Origin: Candidatus Helarchaeota archaeon
GTDB taxonomy: Archaea > Asgardarchaeota > Lokiarchaeia > Helarchaeales > RDOG01
Assembly (NCBI GenBank): GCA_029838215.1
Contig: JALGVI010000050.1
Location: 1-21,872, forward strand
Length of the DNA: 21,872 bases
Direction of reading: 5' to 3'
Below are positions 12,935 to 21,444 of this stretch, piece by piece (position 1 is the stretch's first letter; every line of letters starts with the position of its first letter). Under the pieces are notes generated by a model, which was not told where the DNA came from, made no database searches, and saw only the letters and a program-made list of their open reading frames with translations. A program made the translations under genes and the position numbers.

Positions 12935-14344
12935 ATGAGTTACGAAATACCTTGGGACAAAATCGAAGAAAAACCGGAAAAACAACACAAGGTTATAGGA
13001 CAATTGCTTTTGGACCTCCGTGAAAAGCTTACAATGCAGGAAAACATGATTGCAAATGTGAATGAGGCACTAAAGAATATAAATGATGAAAAGAAAAAGC
13101 TTGTCGAGGAAGTTACGGCAAGAAATGGAAAAATTCTCGAGTTGGTGTCAAAAAAAATACCTGCAATGAATAAGGAAATTGAAGATTTAAAATCACAGAT
13201 ACAACTTTATGCGGTAGAGCGAGAAAAATTTGAGGCAAAAACACAGGGATTAAAAAAGGAAATTGATGACCTTTCAACCCGAATTGAAACTGCGGAAAAT
13301 GAATTGAAGGAAAAAGATCAGAAGATAGCAGAACAAAAACAGATCATGGATAAATATGAAAATCGCATAAAAATGTTGGAAGCAGAATTAGAAGAGGCTC
13401 AGAAAAGTGGAGATGGAGGAGAGGAAAAGCAGATGGAAGAAATGCGATTTTCCATTCAAGAAGAATTCGAAAAAGAATTGAAGACACTTAGAGAAAATGT
13501 ACTTTCAGCAGAGGAGCTAGAAGAAATTGAAAAACTTCGTAAGCTCCCTTCGGCAGAAGAGATTGAAGAAATGTTAATGGAGAGAGACGATGAGATAGAA
13601 CGTCTCAGCAAGCTTTTAGAAGAAAAGGAAAAGCAAGTCAATGGGTTGAATCAAACAATTGATACATTAGAAAAAGCACTTAAAGACCTCAGTTCAGGAG
13701 CACCAAGCCCTGCGAAAAGTGAAGTAATGACACCATCGGCAGGTCCAGTTAGACATGGACGTCGAGTATCCAAAAAAGTTGCTAAAGAAGTTCCCGTCCC
13801 GGAGAGTACTCCTGCAAACATCCATCCAGGGAGTAAAACAGTGGCTGTAAAACCCGTAGAGAAGGCTCCGAGAAGATCCGTTTACGTGCCGCGAGAGTTC
13901 ACATCGAAGTTCGAGCATGCCGCACCTGTCCGACACGTTCACCAAGCACCACCCCAAAAGCAAGTTTCAGAAGAACCCCCCGAGCATGAGCACTCCGTTG
14001 CGCCACCAACTCAACAAGAACCTTCATTTACGGTTTTCAGCGAGAGTTCAACAACACCTTCACGGTCTAAAAAAGCAGGAAAGCTTTCACCACAGATCCT
14101 TCAAATTTTTGATAATTTAGTTAAAGCGGTTCAAGCAGGGATCAAAGCACGCGAGCTCGGTCGAATTCTGGCAGACAGTCGCGATGAAATCGCCAATATA
14201 TATGGATTTAGCTCGACACTCAATGAAATTGGCAGAGTCGCCAGAAATTTAAATAAGGCACCCGTAAACGCAGGGATTGATGGAGAAACACAAAAAGTAT
14301 TCCTGCAAAAAATAGAAGAGTGGAAAAATCGCCTTAAAAGATAG
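12935..14344 (+). CDS. Long coiled-coil protein with Pro/Ser-rich linker and C-terminal four-helix domain
   Basis: aa 20-252 E/K/L-rich heptads broken by GDGG; aa 253-383 Pro/Ser/His-rich; aa 384-469 four amphipathic helices ending KIEEWKNRLKR; upstream GAAGGTG RBS-like motif. Confidence 0.8.
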   Translation: MSYEIPWDKIEEKPEKQHKVIGQLLLDLREKLTMQENMIANVNEALKNINDEKKKLVEEVTARNGKILELVSKKIPAMNKEIEDLKSQIQLYAVEREKFEAKTQGLKKEIDDLSTRIETAENELKEKDQKIAEQKQIMDKYENRIKMLEAELEEAQKSGDGGEEKQMEEMRFSIQEEFEKELKTLRENVLSAEELEEIEKLRKLPSAEEIEEMLMERDDEIERLSKLLEEKEKQVNGLNQTIDTLEKALKDLSSGAPSPAKSEVMTPSAGPVRHGRRVSKKVAKEVPVPESTPANIHPGSKTVAVKPVEKAPRRSVYVPREFTSKFEHAAPVRHVHQAPPQKQVSEEPPEHEHSVAPPTQQEPSFTVFSESSTTPSRSKKAGKLSPQILQIFDNLVKAVQAGIKARELGRILADSRDEIANIYGFSSTLNEIGRVARNLNKAPVNAGIDGETQKVFLQKIEEWKNRLKR

Positions 14345-14357
14345 TGGAAACACGCGA

Positions 14358-15005
14358 TTATTTACTTTTCCTTCTTTTCTCTTTCTTATCCTTTCCTAAA
14401 AATGAATGAACAATATCGTAGGCTTTCTTTATTCCAAGATGATAATCCAATTCTTTAAGGTAGTTATCAAGTATTGTTGGTTTTCCCTTTAGTGCTTTTT
14501 GAACTTCATCAGCCATGTTTAGGTTCTGAAATTCGTTAATGAAGTCATCGTGTTCCTTTTTTAATCGGCTATAAATCCTTTTCTCGATGTCTTCCTTTAG
14601 TTTTTCTAAATCTTTCTTTTGAAGCTTGCTATATTCACCTTGAGTTATGTTGTCGATAATTGGCTTTATTTCGACTTCGTCCAGCCTTTTTGATCGCCCT
14701 TTTGTTGTTTTGAATGGAACTGATGCTTCCAGTATTTTTTTATTATCAAATAATTGCTTGAATAAAAATTTTCTCTTGTCTTCTAATTCCTGTAGTTTTG
14801 CATATTTCCTTGCATCATCTTCGATGTTCCAGCTAAGATTTTTTATCACGTCTCTAACGGTTCTATCAGGATGCTTGTCGGTAATATGAATTTGTCCTTC
14901 GATAATGTCGGGGAAAACGGAATTACAAATCTTGCACTTGCATTTTATTAAATACCTTTGTCTTTGAATTAATTTAATTCTCTTTTCTGCCAGGGATTTG
15001 CTCAT
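14358..15005 (-). CDS. C2H2 zinc-finger / helical protein, third gene of the topoisomerase VI operon
   Basis: CKICNSVFPDIIEGQIHITDKH = C-x2-C-x3-F-x8-H-x4-H. The ATG at 15005 overlaps the top6A TGA as ATGA; the track start at 15011 is a TTG. Confidence 0.75.
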   Translation of the reverse strand: MSKSLAEKRIKLIQRQRYLIKCKCKICNSVFPDIIEGQIHITDKHPDRTVRDVIKNLSWNIEDDARKYAKLQELEDKRKFLFKQLFDNKKILEASVPFKTTKGRSKRLDEVEIKPIIDNITQGEYSKLQKKDLEKLKEDIEKRIYSRLKKEHDDFINEFQNLNMADEVQKALKGKPTILDNYLKELDYHLGIKKAYDIVHSFLGKDKKEKRRKSK

Positions 15006-16237
15006 ATCCAATCCCCCGTTGCCAGTTTTGTCGGCAAGTAAGTTTCTGTAAGGAATTCAATTCCGTGAGAAGAAAGTGCCTGGATTTCGGCTTTCTTTTT
15101 CAGGCTTTTCATCAATTGCAGGTCTTCAACCCATCTGGGATTTTGTTTTACGAATGGTTCTTCAAGCATTTGGTCGCATCGATCTAAATCCGAATCGGAC
15201 ATGTCAAGTCGGCACTCTTTTGGGATCCTGTATGTTTCCAAATCGCGGCTGAGAACGCCAATCAGGTGCATTTTCGGTGTTGCGACAAATGGAGATTCAT
15301 ACGATAGTCTTTTACTCCCCCTCAAATAAACACTGTAAATGTAATGTCCGTATGGATCGGAATCAACCAAACAGAATACAGGCAACGTCAATTCTTTCGA
15401 AAGCTTCCGTAAAAACATTCGCGTGGCGATATCTGCCGATCCTTTTCCCGTTAGAATTATGCAGGGATAATCATTCCACCATTTTTCTTCAGAAAGTCGG
15501 ATGAGCGCTGCATCCTTTTCGACTACAAGTATGAATTCGGCATCAGACTCGACAATTTCAATGGTATCGAGCATGGGTGTAATGCTCCAGCCACCCGTCC
15601 CTAATTTTTGAAGGTCAATCACGTCTCCTGCATTTCGAATCTTTAGACGCCCTATACACATGCCCTTTGCAGAAGCAATGACGTGAGTGGAGTTCCGGAT
15701 GCACCGCAGCATTGCTGCCATATCTTCAATGCTTTTATCGCTATTTTTCTGGTCTTGATAGAGACCCGCTGCCATGTAATACATTTCACGCTTTGTTGTA
15801 TGCTTGTTCTTGACAAGAATTTCATTCGTATCCCGAAGTATTCGTATCAATCTCGTTGCATCCATTACACTCCCAAGATGGTGAAATGGTCTCTGCGTGA
15901 TTTGTTCTCCCAACAGAAGCAAGTCATGTTCTTCATTATAAATGATATTTTTTGATGAGCGGGATGGAATTTCAAAAGTTGGGGACCCGCTTGTAAGAAT
16001 CTCGCGATATATTTTGTCTGCAACATCATAAAGACGTTCTAGCGTGTCCTCACGTCTCAAATCGTCTACTTTAACAACATCGGGAGGCAATTTTGGAATT
16101 GTCGACTCTTCTTCTTCCAACTTTTTTCTTATCATATGTAATTTGAAGAATTTGTTAGAAATTTTGGATATCTTTTCTTTCTTTGAGGTTTTTGAAGTTT
16201 TTTTAACTTTTTTTGGTTTCGGAGTTCGAGCGGACAT
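15002..16237 (-). CDS. top6A: DNA topoisomerase VI subunit A (Spo11 family) with Lys-rich N-terminal tail
   Basis: IPSRSSKNIIY, TTKREMYY (catalytic Tyr motif), VEKDA and DSDPYG TOPRIM motifs, and KKAEIQAL. The start is placed at ATG 16237 because GGAGG lies at 16246-16250; the track start is 16252. Confidence 0.95.
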   Translation of the reverse strand: MSARTPKPKKVKKTSKTSKKEKISKISNKFFKLHMIRKKLEEEESTIPKLPPDVVKVDDLRREDTLERLYDVADKIYREILTSGSPTFEIPSRSSKNIIYNEEHDLLLLGEQITQRPFHHLGSVMDATRLIRILRDTNEILVKNKHTTKREMYYMAAGLYQDQKNSDKSIEDMAAMLRCIRNSTHVIASAKGMCIGRLKIRNAGDVIDLQKLGTGGWSITPMLDTIEIVESDAEFILVVEKDAALIRLSEEKWWNDYPCIILTGKGSADIATRMFLRKLSKELTLPVFCLVDSDPYGHYIYSVYLRGSKRLSYESPFVATPKMHLIGVLSRDLETYRIPKECRLDMSDSDLDRCDQMLEEPFVKQNPRWVEDLQLMKSLKKKAEIQALSSHGIEFLTETYLPTKLATGDWI

Positions 16238-16238
16238 T

Positions 16239-19200
16239 TCATTCGCCTCCATTCATGTCTAAATCGGAATCGGTATCTTCTTGTATGATGATTTCCTCCT
16301 CTTCGTCCAGCATTTCTTCTTGGGTTTCCGCTTCCCCAGGAATCGTGATGATCTCGGGTTCTTCGAATTCTTCTTCTTCGTCTTCGACTTCTTTTGCCAA
16401 TCTCCACACGGGAATTTTTATTCCTTCGACTTCCCTCTTTTCCATTAGAACCCAACCGCGTTCGACGAGATTATTCAAAATTTCGTCAATCATGTGCTTT
16501 GCTACCTTACTCGTGTTTTCAGACAGACCCAGATCTTCCATTATTTCGGACCGATTCTCCCAATGGGTCGATAATATGCTTAAAATGTCTTTTTCGACTT
16601 CTCGCTTGATCGGTTCGGTCAATTTCTCTTCGATCGTGTCTTGGCTAAGACCGTTTTCCTTGTATCGGCCAGATCTTTCGAGAATCGTGCAAAGAGATGC
16701 AGCAAATTCCTTCACGTTACGTAATAGCAAAGATGCACGCCTGGCTCGGCGGCGTTTCTTCTCACGTTTTGTGATATAATTTCTCAATCTACGTCCAACT
16801 TGCTCTATTGCAAGTTTTATCTCTTTCTTGAGGTTTTCATCATCAGCCAACGCTTGTTTCGATTGAGATTTAAACATCACGTGCACGAATGGACCCGACA
16901 CGTTGATGATCACGCGTATCTTTCCTCGAGGTAACCTATTTTCAAACGTGTCTACTTTATAATTCTTCCAATTGACTTCAGCGGCGGCTTTCCAAATTTG
17001 ACAATCGGAATTATCCCTGAGTTTAGGGGTTCTATTGACAAACCTAAAAATAACATCAGTTGCACGCGATGCGGGCTTGATGTCTCCGCCATAAGCAACG
17101 GCGACTTCGACTCCAAAAGCCAGTCCTTTTCCACTGGTCGGGTTTCGCGTTTCGGCATCACAGAAAGCAGGATTAAATTCTTTCTCTATCACTCTAATGA
17201 GGTTTTCAGCACCAACGGGAACAACCGTATCGGTTGGCGGGGCTAAATATTTTTCAGAAATGAAGGACTGATACAATGCATTCACGTGTTCTTCATCAAG
17301 TGAAGAGGGATCAAGCATTTCGAGGCTGTTTGACCCTCCCAACGAATCGTTTGTCTTATCAAGAATTGCTTCAATTTCAGCGGATGAAAGATTTGAAAAA
17401 CTTCGTTTTATTGCAGTCTGGATTTGTTTTGTATTTGCTGTTGACATTATTTCTTTTAGATTATTGAGTGAAATAGAAGCAGGACACTTTGGCAATGTCA
17501 TCATTTCATCATAAAGAACCCTTAGCTCTTTGCCCGTGAGTTCACTTAGAGACTTATCGTTCACGGATGAAAAGCCCAACGCTTTTGTAATCGTTGCGAG
17601 GAGATCATTACGTGCTTTTGACTTGATTTCTTTATACTTATTTCGAAGAATGCTTGAAATTGTCTTGCTTGCATTTTCTTTTAATGTCTTCGTGAAATCA
17701 TCAAATAATATGGTTGGAACAATTTTTTCAAGTTCGGCATGAATGATTTGAGTTTCTTTTTTCTTCAATTCTGAAACAGGAAGAGAGTTCAGACTTTTAT
17801 ATCCGAGTTTTTTGTCAGCGTTCTCAATTATTTTTTTTATCATATTCGTGTTTATTGAACAAAAATCCTTTGATAAGAAATCCGAAAAACTCTTGCCATT
17901 TTCTTTAGCAAGCGTTTTAAATCTCTTGAAACTGATCGAATATGGACAGTTAATTGATTCTCTAACAATTTCTTGTATTGTTTTAATTTCTTCCTTGGAG
18001 ATTTCACCAACTTTCTTTTTCGGCTGCCCGTATTTATTCATGATCTTTTTGACATAATCTCCTGAAACATCCTTGTAATTCTTCTTCAAGTGAGCATCAA
18101 GTTTTTCTTCAGGTGTTTCTTCCATTTTTTTTAGAACGACGTCGGCGGAATTTCTTTGAAAACAGTCCACCTTTGAAGTTATGTTACGATATAATGCCCT
18201 TAATTGCCTATCATCTAATTTATCGGGCGAGACGGAAAAGATGTTTACAGATGTTCCAAGAGCTTTGTTTGCATTTTCGATTATAGTTTTTGCTTTTTTC
18301 TTGCTCATTCGGACAAAATGTTCGGAAAAAAGCGAGACCAAATCAGCATGAGGATTATTTCTCAGGAGTTCTTGAAAATCACCAATGGAAACACTTGATG
18401 GATGGGGTTTTGCGTAATTGGGTTCTTGTGGGAACGATTGAACTTTCCGTGGATAGATCGTGGTGGTTCCGTAGGTATCGATAAATACTATGTTAACATG
18501 TCCATTCAACAGTGCTGTTTGACGAATATATTCATCGGCATAACCACGTATGTATCGTTTATTCTGGTAAAATAGTTTAACATACGTCCCGTGCTTGAAC
18601 CGAGTTCTAAATTCATCGGGTTCTAATTCATATTTCTTTTCATTTTTTTCTGTCGTGTAGAACGCCGAGATGGTTGCAGCAGGTTGACTGGCATGACGAG
18701 TGATGACGACGATCGGTTTTGCACTTGTATTCTGCGCATCTGAGAATGCAGATGATGCACCAAATCCCTGAGATCCTCTCGTTTGTTTTAAATTTTTGCT
18801 CTTTGATGAAGCCAGATATAACCCGAATTTTTCCAGATCTTCCTGTATCATCCCTATTCCGTTATCGAGAATTTCAAAGCAAAACAACCTTACATCTTCA
18901 GACTCATCGAGTGTCTCAACTTTTTCAATCTCGCGCAAGCGTATGATTAAAATGGGCTCTTTATCGATGACATCAAAAACAGGTTCTATGAAGTTGTGAA
19001 ACTGTCTTACCAAAGTCTTTTTCGAAATATCGTGAAAATCAAAATCTTCCAAGACTTTGGAAATTTCGCCTTTTTCATTTTTTTGAGGTGGATTCCACTT
19101 AAAATTAAAGCCCTTGTCAATGCGGTATGCTTTTTCCTTCCAATATGCTGTTTCTATGGCATCCAAGGAATTATCAATAAATTCTACCGCATATTGGGTA

Positions 19201-19955
19201 TGCTTGTGATATCCAAAGTCAAAACCAACAAGTTGGGTTCTTTTTCGCATGAACTCGGCGATTCCTCCTTGTCGAATAACGCCTTTTTCGGTTTTTTCGG
19301 AAACAGATTCTTTCTTGGTTGTTTTGCGTTTCACGATTCTCTTTACGGGAGTTTTTCGCCTCGAATTACGCGCTTTTTTCTTAGGTTGTTTTTCAACAGG
19401 TTTTTCTTTTTTAGTTTCTATTGGCACCGGTTTCTCCTTTGGAGTTTCAACTTCTACTGGAGCTTCTTCAATTACGGGCTCCGACTTCTCTTCCGATTCA
19501 ATTTCAATTTTTGGTTCGGGCATCTTTACTTTCTTGGTAGAGCCCTTTTCAGGTTTTAATTCAACAGAAGCCGCAGGTTGAATTTTTGTAGGAATTTTAT
19601 CTTCAATTGTAAGAGTTTTTTGAATCGGTTTTTGCGTCTTTTTCTTTTTTATTTTTGATGTCTTGACAGGTTTTGACTTTTTTTTCTTGGGTTTTTCTTT
19701 CATAGAAGGTTTTTTCGGGATTTCTTGGACGAGCTTATATCGAGTATCTTTTTTCGCCCCTTTTACCTTAATTTTATCTTGTAATTCAAGCCTTTTTAAT
19801 TGTTTTTTAAATTGGGCACCTATCTTGCGGATCTCTTCTTTCGTCTCGCCTTTCTTTATCACTTTCTTGACCAGATCACCCAGTGATAACCATTCTTTGG
19901 ATGAGCTTAATTCCTCTAAAGTCTGTAAAACGATATCTTGAGTTATTAGGGGCAA
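16239..19955 (-). CDS. top6B: DNA topoisomerase VI subunit B, greatly extended (1238 aa)
   Basis: GHKL motifs VEFIDNSLDA, DNGIG, SSK...QTRGSQGFG and HGTYV; KPHP-H2TH; transducer APPTDTV, EVAVAYGG, RFVNRTP, VNWKNY and FKSQSKQAL. TTG start with GGACGTGA 4 nt upstream. Confidence 0.95.
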   Translation of the reverse strand: MPLITQDIVLQTLEELSSSKEWLSLGDLVKKVIKKGETKEEIRKIGAQFKKQLKRLELQDKIKVKGAKKDTRYKLVQEIPKKPSMKEKPKKKKSKPVKTSKIKKKKTQKPIQKTLTIEDKIPTKIQPAASVELKPEKGSTKKVKMPEPKIEIESEEKSEPVIEEAPVEVETPKEKPVPIETKKEKPVEKQPKKKARNSRRKTPVKRIVKRKTTKKESVSEKTEKGVIRQGGIAEFMRKRTQLVGFDFGYHKHTQYAVEFIDNSLDAIETAYWKEKAYRIDKGFNFKWNPPQKNEKGEISKVLEDFDFHDISKKTLVRQFHNFIEPVFDVIDKEPILIIRLREIEKVETLDESEDVRLFCFEILDNGIGMIQEDLEKFGLYLASSKSKNLKQTRGSQGFGASSAFSDAQNTSAKPIVVITRHASQPAATISAFYTTEKNEKKYELEPDEFRTRFKHGTYVKLFYQNKRYIRGYADEYIRQTALLNGHVNIVFIDTYGTTTIYPRKVQSFPQEPNYAKPHPSSVSIGDFQELLRNNPHADLVSLFSEHFVRMSKKKAKTIIENANKALGTSVNIFSVSPDKLDDRQLRALYRNITSKVDCFQRNSADVVLKKMEETPEEKLDAHLKKNYKDVSGDYVKKIMNKYGQPKKKVGEISKEEIKTIQEIVRESINCPYSISFKRFKTLAKENGKSFSDFLSKDFCSINTNMIKKIIENADKKLGYKSLNSLPVSELKKKETQIIHAELEKIVPTILFDDFTKTLKENASKTISSILRNKYKEIKSKARNDLLATITKALGFSSVNDKSLSELTGKELRVLYDEMMTLPKCPASISLNNLKEIMSTANTKQIQTAIKRSFSNLSSAEIEAILDKTNDSLGGSNSLEMLDPSSLDEEHVNALYQSFISEKYLAPPTDTVVPVGAENLIRVIEKEFNPAFCDAETRNPTSGKGLAFGVEVAVAYGGDIKPASRATDVIFRFVNRTPKLRDNSDCQIWKAAAEVNWKNYKVDTFENRLPRGKIRVIINVSGPFVHVMFKSQSKQALADDENLKKEIKLAIEQVGRRLRNYITKREKKRRRARRASLLLRNVKEFAASLCTILERSGRYKENGLSQDTIEEKLTEPIKREVEKDILSILSTHWENRSEIMEDLGLSENTSKVAKHMIDEILNNLVERGWVLMEKREVEGIKIPVWRLAKEVEDEEEEFEEPEIITIPGEAETQEEMLDEEEEIIIQEDTDSDLDMNGGE
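17241..18401 (-). repeat. Five tandem H2TH-like protein repeats (72-80 aa) inside Top6B, aa 519-905
   Basis: Units start PSSVSIGDF / FQRNSADVV / PYSISFKRF / PTILFDDF / PASISLNNL. They share the F/Y-x2-[MVIL]-S/N/K...K-I-I/M core and end with [LI]-x3-[EQH]-[LIV]-x2-[LI]. Confidence 0.8.
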
Positions 19956-20145: not shown

Positions 20146-21444
20146 TCATGTCGTGACTGCAGGGGCTTTTTTACCTTGTAAGTCTTCTACAATTTTATCA
20201 ATAATTTCTGATGCAACAAGTGCCTTCTGTTCTAAAGGAATGTGTTTATATGTTTTATCAGGGTTGATTATGTAGATTTCATTAGTTTCATTGACGAATC
20301 CTCGTTTTTCCTTACCCACGTCATTAGCCACCATTAAATTCAGGTTATATTTTATCATTCCCTTATATGCCTTATCAATCATTTCTTTCTCCGTAACGTT
20401 GAATTCAGCCTTAAATGCACAGATGTAAACGTCAGGATCGGTAATGCGGGCTTCTGAAACACATTTCGGCGTGGTTCTAAGCTTGAGTGTCAGACCACCT
20501 GGCTGCTTTGACCGGATTTTTGTACCAGTGTGGTGTTCTTCTGGAGTATAATCAGCGATTGCCGCCGCACAAACGAATGCATCATATTTTGTTTCTTTTA
20601 GTTCGCGAATTACTTCATTAATCAGCTGTTCCGTGCTTTCAATGTTTATTACTTTTACATTTTCATATGCGGGTGGTTCAACGGTTCCCTTGCCATACAC
20701 AATCGTTACAAGATCTGCACCTCGTAACACGGCTTCTTGTGCGATGGCAATGCCCATTCTTCCAGATGAAGGATTGGTAATGAATCGTACTCCATCAATA
20801 TATTCTCGCGTGGGACCTGCCGTGATGAGGATTTTCCTTCCGACCAAGTCCCTTTTTGGAACATTTTTGATAATCTTCATTACATCATTTACGATCTCGT
20901 TAACATGAGCAATCTTGGCTTTATTTTCTTCAATCCTTGGACCGAGAAAGGTCACTCCCAGCTCCTTCAAGGTCAGGATATTCTTTTTGACAATGGGATG
21001 ATTATACATTGAATAATGCATCGCAGGAACAATTACAATGGGAATTTTTGCACCAAATCCAGTCGTCACGACCGTAGTTACGGGAGTATCATCTATTCCA
21101 CAAGCTATTTTAGAGATAGTATTCGCCGTAGCAGGACAAATTAGGAGCAAGTCCACGTTATCCAAGACGTCACCCGCAAGTGCCACGTGTTCCACGCTAC
21201 CCGTGAGTTCGGTAACGACGGGATTTCCCGATGCCCAATGCAACAAGTTCGGATTCATCAATTGTTGTGCGGCCTTCGACATTACTACATACGTTTCAGC
21301 ACCTAATCGCATTAATTCTCGAATGATGTAAACCGTTTGAATAATTGCGACAGATCCCGTGACGCATATGCAAATTTTTTTTCCTGCTAACAAACCCTTG
21401 GGATCCATGATATCCTTAGAAGGATGACGTTTCTGCATGGTCAT
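20146..21444 (-). CDS. coaBC: Bifunctional phosphopantothenoylcysteine decarboxylase / phosphopantothenate--cysteine ligase, archaeal type
   Basis: [75 protein letters not shown] and [10 protein letters not shown]. Confidence 0.95.

Follow-up and report, generated by a model that had tools for sequence, protein, structure and literature searches.

An enlarged topoisomerase VI with five H2TH units and a candidate third subunit in an Asgard archaeon

The topoisomerase VI (topo VI) described here is encoded in a stretch of 21,872 nucleotides from Candidatus Helarchaeota archaeon (assembly GCA_029838215.1, contig JALGVI010000050.1, positions 1 to 21,872), called the window in this work. Three minus-strand genes, top6B, top6A and an open reading frame named ORF3, fill positions 14358-19955 and are translationally coupled. 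Comparison with its relatives indicates that this Top6B represents a conserved architecture of a known enzyme in one Asgard clade, in which five H2TH units lie between the ATPase and transducer domains and further modules have been added at both ends. The operon probably encodes the housekeeping topo VI of a Helarchaeales-like member of the Lokiarchaeia, an A2B2 enzyme carrying out normal ATP-driven strand passage and bearing lineage-specific additions.

Most archaea depend on topo VI as their essential decatenase and relaxase, and the meiotic Spo11/TopoVIBL break machinery descends from it. The enzymes of Asgard archaea are the closest prokaryotic relatives of this machinery. A genome-wide search of the source genome found one Top6A, one Top6B and seven histone-fold genes, and detected neither GyrA nor GyrB in a genome that is 94% complete. 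Because of the histone-fold genes, the lack of a detectable gyrase and the single topo VI, the enzyme is most likely a housekeeping one. At this completeness it is most likely also the only type II topoisomerase of the cell, and it would act on histone-bound DNA.

Operon structure and catalytic cores

The coupling of the genes can be read at both junctions. The stop codon of top6B is TGA 16239-16241, and the letters of the B/A junction are GAC ATG AAT GGA GGC GAA TGA A ATG. Two starts are available for top6A: ATG 16252, overlapping top6B by 14 nucleotides, and ATG 16237, which lies 1 nucleotide past the top6B stop and has GGAGG upstream. The junction between top6A and ORF3 is an ATGA overlap, and because of it the start of ORF3 is placed at ATG 15005 and not at the TTG 15011 given by the ORF finder; the database record of this protein (P0124) is likewise 215 residues long. 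The gapless three-gene operon described by the initial annotation, made from the sequence alone, is borne out by overlapping or adjacent starts and stops at both junctions.

Top6B is recognized by Pfam PF09239 (139.5 bits; cut-off 24) and, in five stretches, by NCBIfam NF003218 (370 bits; cut-off 274). The match to TIGR01052 scores 320, under the cut-off of 380.7; it falls into three stretches, most likely broken up by the inserts of this protein. Among known structures, Top6B matches PDB 2q2e_B (E 1.9e-55) and aligns blockwise with the Top6B proteins of M. mazei and S. shibatae. Its AlphaFold2 (AF2) model superposes on 1mu5 with a VIA Z of 29.6 (rmsd 7.0, 416 residues aligned), and reaches Z 27.1 with 2zbk_B and Z 27.9 with 9o0g_D. 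When the full-length model serves as query, the fold search yields mainly the cores of Top6B, GyrB and MutL and is uninformative on the appendages.

As the initial annotation held, both catalytic cores are intact. The GHKL domain of Top6B carries the N-box (E258/N262), G1 (D364-G-x-G368) and G2 (G394-G399), and the transducer carries WKNY at 996-999 and the switch lysine K1033, which aligns with K427 of S. shibatae. These motifs are invariant or nearly so in an alignment of 59 Asgard sequences. In Top6A, R155-x-x-Y158-Y159, the Toprim residue E245 and D297-x-D299 are aligned with 2zbk_A, its best PDB match (E 2e-59), and the Pfam families PF21180 (194.6 bits) and PF04406 (57.2 bits) are found.

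Two smaller features of the GHKL domain can be mentioned. An insertion of about 45-65 residues (residues 267-333, window 18956-19156, minus strand) separates the N-box from the first core strand; this insertion includes helices at 297-303 and 312-326, is partly modelled at low confidence, and is common to the five-H2TH clade (consensus WK....Y.L). At residues 467-471 (window 18542-18556, minus strand) the KGRR crossing-sensor loop of M. mazei is replaced by xRGY (YIRGYAD), a sequence that also stands in the Asgard consensus at this site. Of the three basic residues of this loop that have been tested in M. mazei, two are thus not conserved.

The five-unit H2TH array

In M. mazei the H2TH domain grips the distal arms of a sharply bent G-segment of about 70 bp through R263, K268 and K308, and it couples closure of the ATPase gate to bending and cleavage (PMC5922973, PMC13040014). 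In H2TH mutants of this enzyme ATP turnover is uncoupled from strand passage, and short duplexes are not cleaved (PMC5922973, PMC13040014).

The M. mazei protein aligns with the window Top6B at residues 362-556 and then again from 881 on, so that the H2TH region is longer by about 325 residues. With their flanks these residues make up five units, R1 to R5 (Table 1), which share the pattern [CP]PxSIS...F...L.EN..K...L...F..IS...K.II....K.LG...(S)EL...E...LY. Pairwise hhalign comparisons of the five units and the canonical domain give probabilities of 88-99.9% and E values of 1e-6 to 1e-32, using per-repeat alignments from 28 orthologues and, as the canonical reference, the single H2TH of short (680-760 residues) Asgard Top6B proteins. 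In the AF2 model the array forms five equal four-helix units with pLDDT of 85-93. Homology to the canonical domain and four helices in each unit uphold the four extra H2TH-like repeats proposed at the outset. A self-BLASTP of Top6B revealed no internal repeats, so that profile methods are needed to see them, and neither Pfam nor NCBIfam holds a family for the extra units.

The canonical contacts with DNA appear, from the alignment, to be split between the two ends of the array. R549 in R1 is the equivalent of M. mazei K268 and is invariant in 59 sequences, and K902, placed right after R5, is the equivalent of K308. Across the 28 orthologues the median net charge is +5 for R1, which retains the basic signature of canonical DNA contact, with K/R conserved where helix 3 begins. 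The next three units, R2-R4, are mildly basic (+1 to +2) and conserve K/R at the same place.

Winged helices and charged segments

Both ends of Top6B carry a winged-helix-like domain, as had been suggested from the letters, and both show a helix-helix-helix-hairpin succession in AF2. The N-terminal one is modelled with block pLDDT of 82-96 in the full-length protein and with a mean of 79 when residues 1-85 are folded alone, and it is kept in 9 orthologues. The C-terminal one has block pLDDT of 79-92 and is conserved in 15 orthologue clusters. Pfam and NCBIfam contain no family for either domain, giving sub-threshold winged-helix matches only.

A PDB fold search with the N-terminal domain returned winged-helix domains only (for instance, 1w1w_E at Z 9.7, 6l9z_S at Z 8.6 and 1hst_A at Z 8.4). 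Its neighbours tie at Z 8-9.7 and include a kleisin winged-helix domain (9.7), LACTB2 (9.6), E2F-DP, Z-alpha, Fur and H1/H5, linker histones of the H1/H5 type covering the range 8.0-8.6 (H1x 8.6, H5 8.4). The Pfam Linker_histone profile scores 14.6 bits (E 0.038), under its cut-off of 22.4, and Foldseek found nothing at E <=0.001, its best match being H1x (E 0.044) among many winged helices. The domain is thus best described, on its modelled fold, as a generic winged helix and not specifically a linker-histone one, and the label 'chromatin-protein-like' given earlier finds no specific support in it. An identity specific to H1 was considered and rejected as unproven, since the H1 matches tie with other winged helices. 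A winged helix followed by a Lys-rich disordered tail, the layout of linker histones, is present; the resemblance is in layout only.

The charged segments listed at first reading, Lys-rich on both subunits and acidic at the end of Top6B, are found as described (Table 1). No PIP-box-like motif was found in Top6A, Top6B or ORF3.

The third gene

ORF3 encodes a protein that is helical in its middle and C-terminal parts and basic at its C-terminus. Near its N-terminus it matches the PROSITE C2H2 pattern PS00028 (C24-x2-C27-x3-F31-x8-H40-x4-H45), in agreement with its first description as a C2H2 finger protein. C22, C24, C27, F31, H40 and H45, together with the helix that follows, are invariant in six orthologues. 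The protein has no Pfam match at E <=0.1, zf-C2H2 included, and belongs to no NCBIfam family; a word-index homologue search returned the protein itself only. Its relatives came from synteny and a profile search, and the family has seven members in 1.84 billion representative proteins.

In five other loci (L006, L007, L008, L009 and L010) an orthologue stands directly behind top6A, its start codon overlapping the top6A stop. One of the loci comes from a Lokiarchaeota metagenome-assembled genome (MAG; L006), its orthologue having 39% identity, another from a Logan contig (L007), and the others from the genomes G302, G303 and G297, which belong to the family of the window's genome (f1) and to family f3 of the same order. 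In 74 genomes of families f4 and f5 no convincing match was obtained (best E about 1e-3). The orthologues differ in their charged parts: that of G302 (L008:1770-2456, minus strand) ends in a poly-Glu/Asp tail of about 30 residues where the window protein ends basic, and those of G303 and G297 have an acidic insert of about 100 residues. The neighbouring Top6A of G303 (L009:2-1810, plus strand) has long N-terminal PPAEVKK-type repeats in an open frame of more than 600 residues that ends at the contig edge.

The place of ORF3 in the enzyme was modelled by a prediction with three chains, Top6A 40-416, Top6B 885-1195 and ORF3 as the partner, with custom alignments. Three runs gave ipSAE values of 0.65, 0.00 and 0.62 (median 0.62), the best of three controls being 0.00, with contact agreement of at least 50% and partner pLDDT of at least 67. 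Of 80 solved complexes 58 attain this ipSAE mark, as do 2 of 110 mismatched pairs, a calibration that is approximate for three chains and custom alignments. The confidently predicted interface involves the last Toprim helices of Top6A (336-342, 366-376 and 396-414) and residues 5-20, 34-42, 51-55 and 68-86 of ORF3, the finger helix included. The prediction supports, without showing it, binding of ORF3 to the C-terminus of the Top6A Toprim domain. The zinc finger had been counted among the putative DNA-binding modules at first; on this model it would sit on Top6A and would not be free for DNA.

Distribution across Asgard archaea

Long Top6B proteins (950-1350 residues) form more than 200 clusters, nearly all of them from Asgard MAGs. 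A hidden Markov model (HMM) of the repeat sorts the listed proteins into four classes: proteins with five H2TH units (28 clusters, the window's own and 27 others); short proteins of 680-760 residues with one H2TH; a large Lokiarchaeales class of 1,000-1,280 residues with an H2TH that an unrelated insert of about 150 residues divides in two; and giant proteins. In a tree of the core domains (FastTree, midpoint root, no direction claimed) the classes are coherent, and 22 of the 26 five-H2TH proteins included fall in one well-supported clade; this form may have had a single origin.

Within the five-H2TH class the modules are distributed unevenly. The N-terminal winged helix is found only in the order to which the window belongs. 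Most members have the C-terminal winged helix, in some cases with a Cys4 domain after it, and four are without this C-terminal domain. Of the relatives, none but the nearest (P0005, P0006 and P0008) keep the acidic tail. In 301 genomes searched across the phylum, open frames around the transducer range from about 500 to 4,300 residues. The exact architecture is confined to one Asgard clade, and the elaboration of Top6B is general across Asgard archaea. That the architecture might be widespread had been raised as an objection; it fails for the exact combination and holds for the elaboration as such, which is the rule in these archaea.

The other forms deserve a brief description. The giant Top6B of G026 (L011:2812-15366, minus strand = G026:C1) has 4,184 residues, and proteins of about 2,300 and 3,500 residues occur in the families of G259 (L003) and G054 (L004), respectively. 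Each has a normal core of about 520 residues and, behind it, a huge C-terminal array with HhH-type Pfam matches (RAD51D_N, RNA_pol_A_CTD), of at least 13 units by a quick HMM. In the order of the window, the Top6B of G240 (family f2; L005:3594-7640, plus strand; 1,348 residues) agrees with the window protein in its N-terminal winged helix and Lys-rich linker. Its insert is different, having two Cys4 motifs that resemble zinc ribbons and HhH-like modules with GIGKxTL, and the protein gave no match to the H2TH-repeat HMM. In Lokiarchaeales-type proteins (P0033-P0123) a conserved charged insert of about 150 residues interrupts the single H2TH behind helix 3, at the same site as the extra repeats of the window's clade, and several have precomputed HeH, Rho_N, Ish1 (SAP/LEM-like) or HC2 matches. 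The H2TH region of Top6B looks like a hot spot of insertion. Multiple H2TH copies were also considered for the Lokiarchaeales proteins and rejected, the one H2TH being split by an unrelated insert.

Proposed mechanism and alternative explanations

In the preferred reading, that of a housekeeping topo VI with lineage-specific additions, the H2TH domain would have been multiplied to five units through internal tandem duplication. With a first unit that retains the basic contact helix and three mildly basic units behind it, the array would provide a longer or re-routed interface for the DNA arms, with more DNA held per enzyme. The N-terminal winged helix, the linker with its net charge of +25, the Lys-rich tail of Top6A and the C-terminal winged helix could tether the enzyme non-specifically to DNA or to chromatin built on histones, and its non-specific affinity for DNA would be raised by the basic linker and tails. 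The acidic tail may shield these basic parts or associate with basic partners, for instance histones, and ORF3 would be a third subunit whose conserved first 90 residues dock on the last Toprim helices of Top6A. Binding of DNA by the added modules, any effect on activity, wrapping, bridging or compaction of DNA and a targeting to chromatin are conjecture. A bolder version is tentative and, in our judgement, improbable rather than probable: a true three-subunit type IIB enzyme, with ORF3 clamped on it and a five-unit H2TH arm, would engage far more than about 70 bp and wrap or bridge onto histone-based chromatin. Together with the sister forms having HhH arrays or HeH-type motifs, it would mean that Asgard lineages repeatedly made topo VI multi-subunit and chromatin-anchored before Spo11/TopoVIBL.

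Several points weigh against the preferred reading. We know of no experiments on record with any Asgard topo VI. R5 is acidic throughout the 28 orthologues (median net charge -6), R2-R4 are weakly basic, and the equivalent of R549/K268 is not retained in R2-R4 of the window protein; because of this weak or acidic charge and the loss of the R549 equivalent, the extra repeats may be structural spacers and not DNA binders. Several of the added modules are of a nucleic-acid-binding type, as first proposed; with these charges, not all of them look like DNA binders. The top neighbours of the N-terminal domain are kleisin winged-helix domains, whose ligand is protein and not DNA; the C-terminal one is called from secondary structure alone; and the pTM of 0.53 makes the relative placement of domains in the Top6B model unreliable. 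As to ORF3, one of the three complex runs scored 0.00, with an alignment six rows deep. The gene was not found in the sister family f2 (0/2 genomes, G240 and G304), and no ORF3-like gene lies behind top6A in the G240 locus. Since it was not found in the f2 genomes searched, ORF3 is not essential to this type of enzyme.

Some of these points fit an alternative that we consider unlikely, though the most serious one, in which the additions are protein-protein adaptors or regulators: the winged helices, the acidic tail and ORF3 would recruit topo VI to SMC/kleisin-like complexes, the replisome or histones, or control its activity, and the H2TH array would be a rigid spacer. An acidic tail unable to bind DNA, an acidic R5 beside weakly basic R2-R4, and a finger helix predicted to pack on Top6A and not on DNA are all as such adaptors would have them. 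The N-terminal winged helix, topped by kleisin C-terminal domains (1w1w_E Z 9.7, 6qpq_D 9.5, 4i99_C 8.2), can be read in the same sense, but these scores tie with those of DNA-binding winged helices (H1/H5, Z-alpha, Fur, E2F-DP). Moreover, a linker of charge +25 and Lys-rich tails are typical non-specific DNA binders, basic columns are kept in R1-R4 at the helix of the H2TH that contacts DNA, and no partner protein has come to light.

A type IIB enzyme of a specialised or degenerate kind, making Spo11-like breaks or serving in defence, is very improbable. Relatives of topo VI do act as break-makers in meiosis and in the MksBEFG, Wadjet and Gabija defence systems (PMC13040014), and Spo11 complexes typically have extra subunits. 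However, the ATP-binding, switch-lysine, WKxY, tyrosine and Toprim residues are all intact here, the pair is the sole Top6A/Top6B in a genome where gyrase was not found, its synteny beside coaBC is conserved and of a housekeeping kind, and none of the adjacent genes is a defence gene. That the long top6B is an artefact of assembly or gene calling, a chimeric contig or fused neighbours, can practically be set aside. It could be suspected in a MAG of 170 contigs with an estimated contamination of 6.2%, but an identical 1238-residue protein (P0004) is on record from a contig of 9,373 bases, which is shorter than the window, collinear orthologues with 45-61% identity occur in more than 25 clusters (NCBI, JGI, ENA and Logan assemblies), synteny is kept in L006, L007 and L008, the frame is uninterrupted and its domains are confidently folded. 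The misassembly feared at first is likewise at odds with the five-H2TH array of the 27 other clusters and with the five other loci having ORF3 behind top6A.

Comparison with known systems

The window enzyme shares with canonical topo VI (S. shibatae 2ZBK; M. mazei 2Q2E, 9O8P/9O0G) the A and B subunits and the GHKL, H2TH, transducer, 5Y-CAP and Toprim domains, with VIA Z of 25-30 to Top6B structures. The motifs for catalysis and DNA contact are likewise all common to both. Canonical Top6B proteins have 530-621 residues and one H2TH, whereas the window Top6B has 1238 residues and five, as well as two winged helices, a basic linker of 150 residues and an acidic tail. It is devoid of the Ig-like C-terminal domain (CTD) of M. 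mazei and has xRGY in place of the KGRR loop. The Lys-rich N-terminal tail of Top6A and the third operon gene are further additions.

Giant Top6B proteins of the Heimdall/Hod group (2,300-4,300 residues) belong to the same phylum and likewise combine an intact core with many small helical modules of the nucleic-acid-binding type. However, they have one H2TH and an HhH-type array after the transducer, whereas the window protein multiplies the internal H2TH and adds winged helices, and the two forms are separate clades in the tree. The Lokiarchaeales-type proteins, from the same class of archaea, have the H2TH region enlarged at the same place, but with an insert that is not H2TH, and several bear HeH/Rho_N/Ish1-type motifs in place of winged helices.

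An extra helix in Asgard Top6A and Top6B, as well as a CTD, has been described (PMC9665070), and topo VI paralogues exist in some Asgard lineages (PMC12680538). Plant topo VI (RHL1, BIN4) and the Spo11 core complex are type IIB systems that need or carry extra small subunits (PMC9665070). The topo VI of the window also has an extra protein, which is co-encoded and predicted on the A subunit. No sequence relationship of ORF3 to these subunits was detected, ORF3 having no Pfam family and only seven relatives, and no direct comparison with RHL1/BIN4 having been made. BIN4/RHL1 lie on the C-terminal region of TopoVIB in the models of Brinkmeier et al., whereas ORF3 is predicted on the Top6A Toprim domain. 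The topo VI papers examined and full-text searches, subscription-only papers apart, gave no description of multiplied H2TH, of Top6B winged helices or of a third archaeal topo VI gene, and the view that this combination had not been described is so far sustained. The wider trend of Asgard Top6B elaboration is apparently also undescribed, and published Top6B surveys, trimmed to the core, have overlooked large lineage-specific Asgard architectures.

Topoisomerase cores joined to tandem DNA-binding modules or to an acidic regulatory tail exist elsewhere, as in Topo V with its HhH repeats and in the CTD of GyrA with its acidic tail. These are unrelated families with different folds, and the parallel is an analogy only.

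Globular CTDs of Top6B correlate with gyrase (PMC9348778). The window enzyme is a possible exception to this link, having a globular C-terminal domain in a genome where gyrase was not found at 94% completeness. The five-H2TH enzymes are, furthermore, natural variants for testing the length of the DNA arms, bending and the control by accessory factors of a type IIB topoisomerase.

Genome setting

The source genome is metagenome-assembled, with 3.6 Mb in the 170 contigs mentioned, and the nearest database matches of the window proteins carry the labels Lokiarchaeota or Helarchaeota. No tRNA genes were found within the window. The features discussed in this work are collected in Table 1.

Table 1. 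Features of the topo VI operon and its neighbours (positions in the window; residues of the protein named)
Feature	Residues	Position	Strand	Remarks
coaBC (Flavoprotein/DFP)		20146-21444	-	upstream neighbour of the operon
top6B	1238 aa	16239..19955	-	topo VI B subunit; TTG start right behind in-frame TGA
Top6B N-terminal winged helix	1-76	19728..19955	-	AF2 H6-17, H25-32, H39-58, E62-65, E72-75
Top6B Lys/Pro-rich disordered linker	77-225	19281..19727	-	43 K, 18 P, net +25, pLDDT ~30
Top6B GHKL ATPase domain	226-511	18423..19280	-	N-box, G1, G2; HATPase_c_3 match
H2TH R1	512-597	18165..18422	-	canonical N-terminal copy, basic; hhalign vs canonical E 1.8e-32
H2TH R2	598-669	17949..18164	-	hhalign vs R1/R3/R4/R5/canonical E 1e-7 to 4e-6; four helices
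H2TH R3	670-746	17718..17948	-	hhalign vs canonical E 3e-15; four helices
H2TH R4	747-823	17487..17717	-	hhalign vs canonical E 2.5e-9; four helices
H2TH R5	824-901	17253..17486	-	canonical C-terminal copy, acidic; hhalign vs canonical E 3e-16; leads into transducer
Top6B transducer	902-1094	16674..17252	-	WKNY, K1033, long stalk helix 1040-1094
Top6B C-terminal winged helix	1095-1188	16392..16673	-	AF2 H1105-1127, H1135-1142, H1150-1165, hairpin E1169-1176/E1179-1186
Top6B acidic tail	1189-1238	16242..16391	-	25 D/E, zero K/R
top6A	416 aa	15002..16252	-	411 aa if started from ATG 16237
Top6A Lys-rich tail	1-60	16073-16252	-	15 K
ORF3	215 aa	14358..15005	-	clade-specific C2H2-motif protein; candidate third subunit
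ORF3 Cys/His motif	22-45	14871..14942	-	C22-x-C24-x2-C27-x3-F31-x8-H40-x4-H45
Coiled-coil protein		12935-14344	+	without family; ~400-470 aa in the compared loci; convergent, downstream of the operon

An AT-rich spacer of 190 bp lies upstream of top6B, with coaBC beyond it on the same strand. This gene order, with coaBC upstream and the convergent coiled-coil gene downstream, is kept in L006, L007 and L008.

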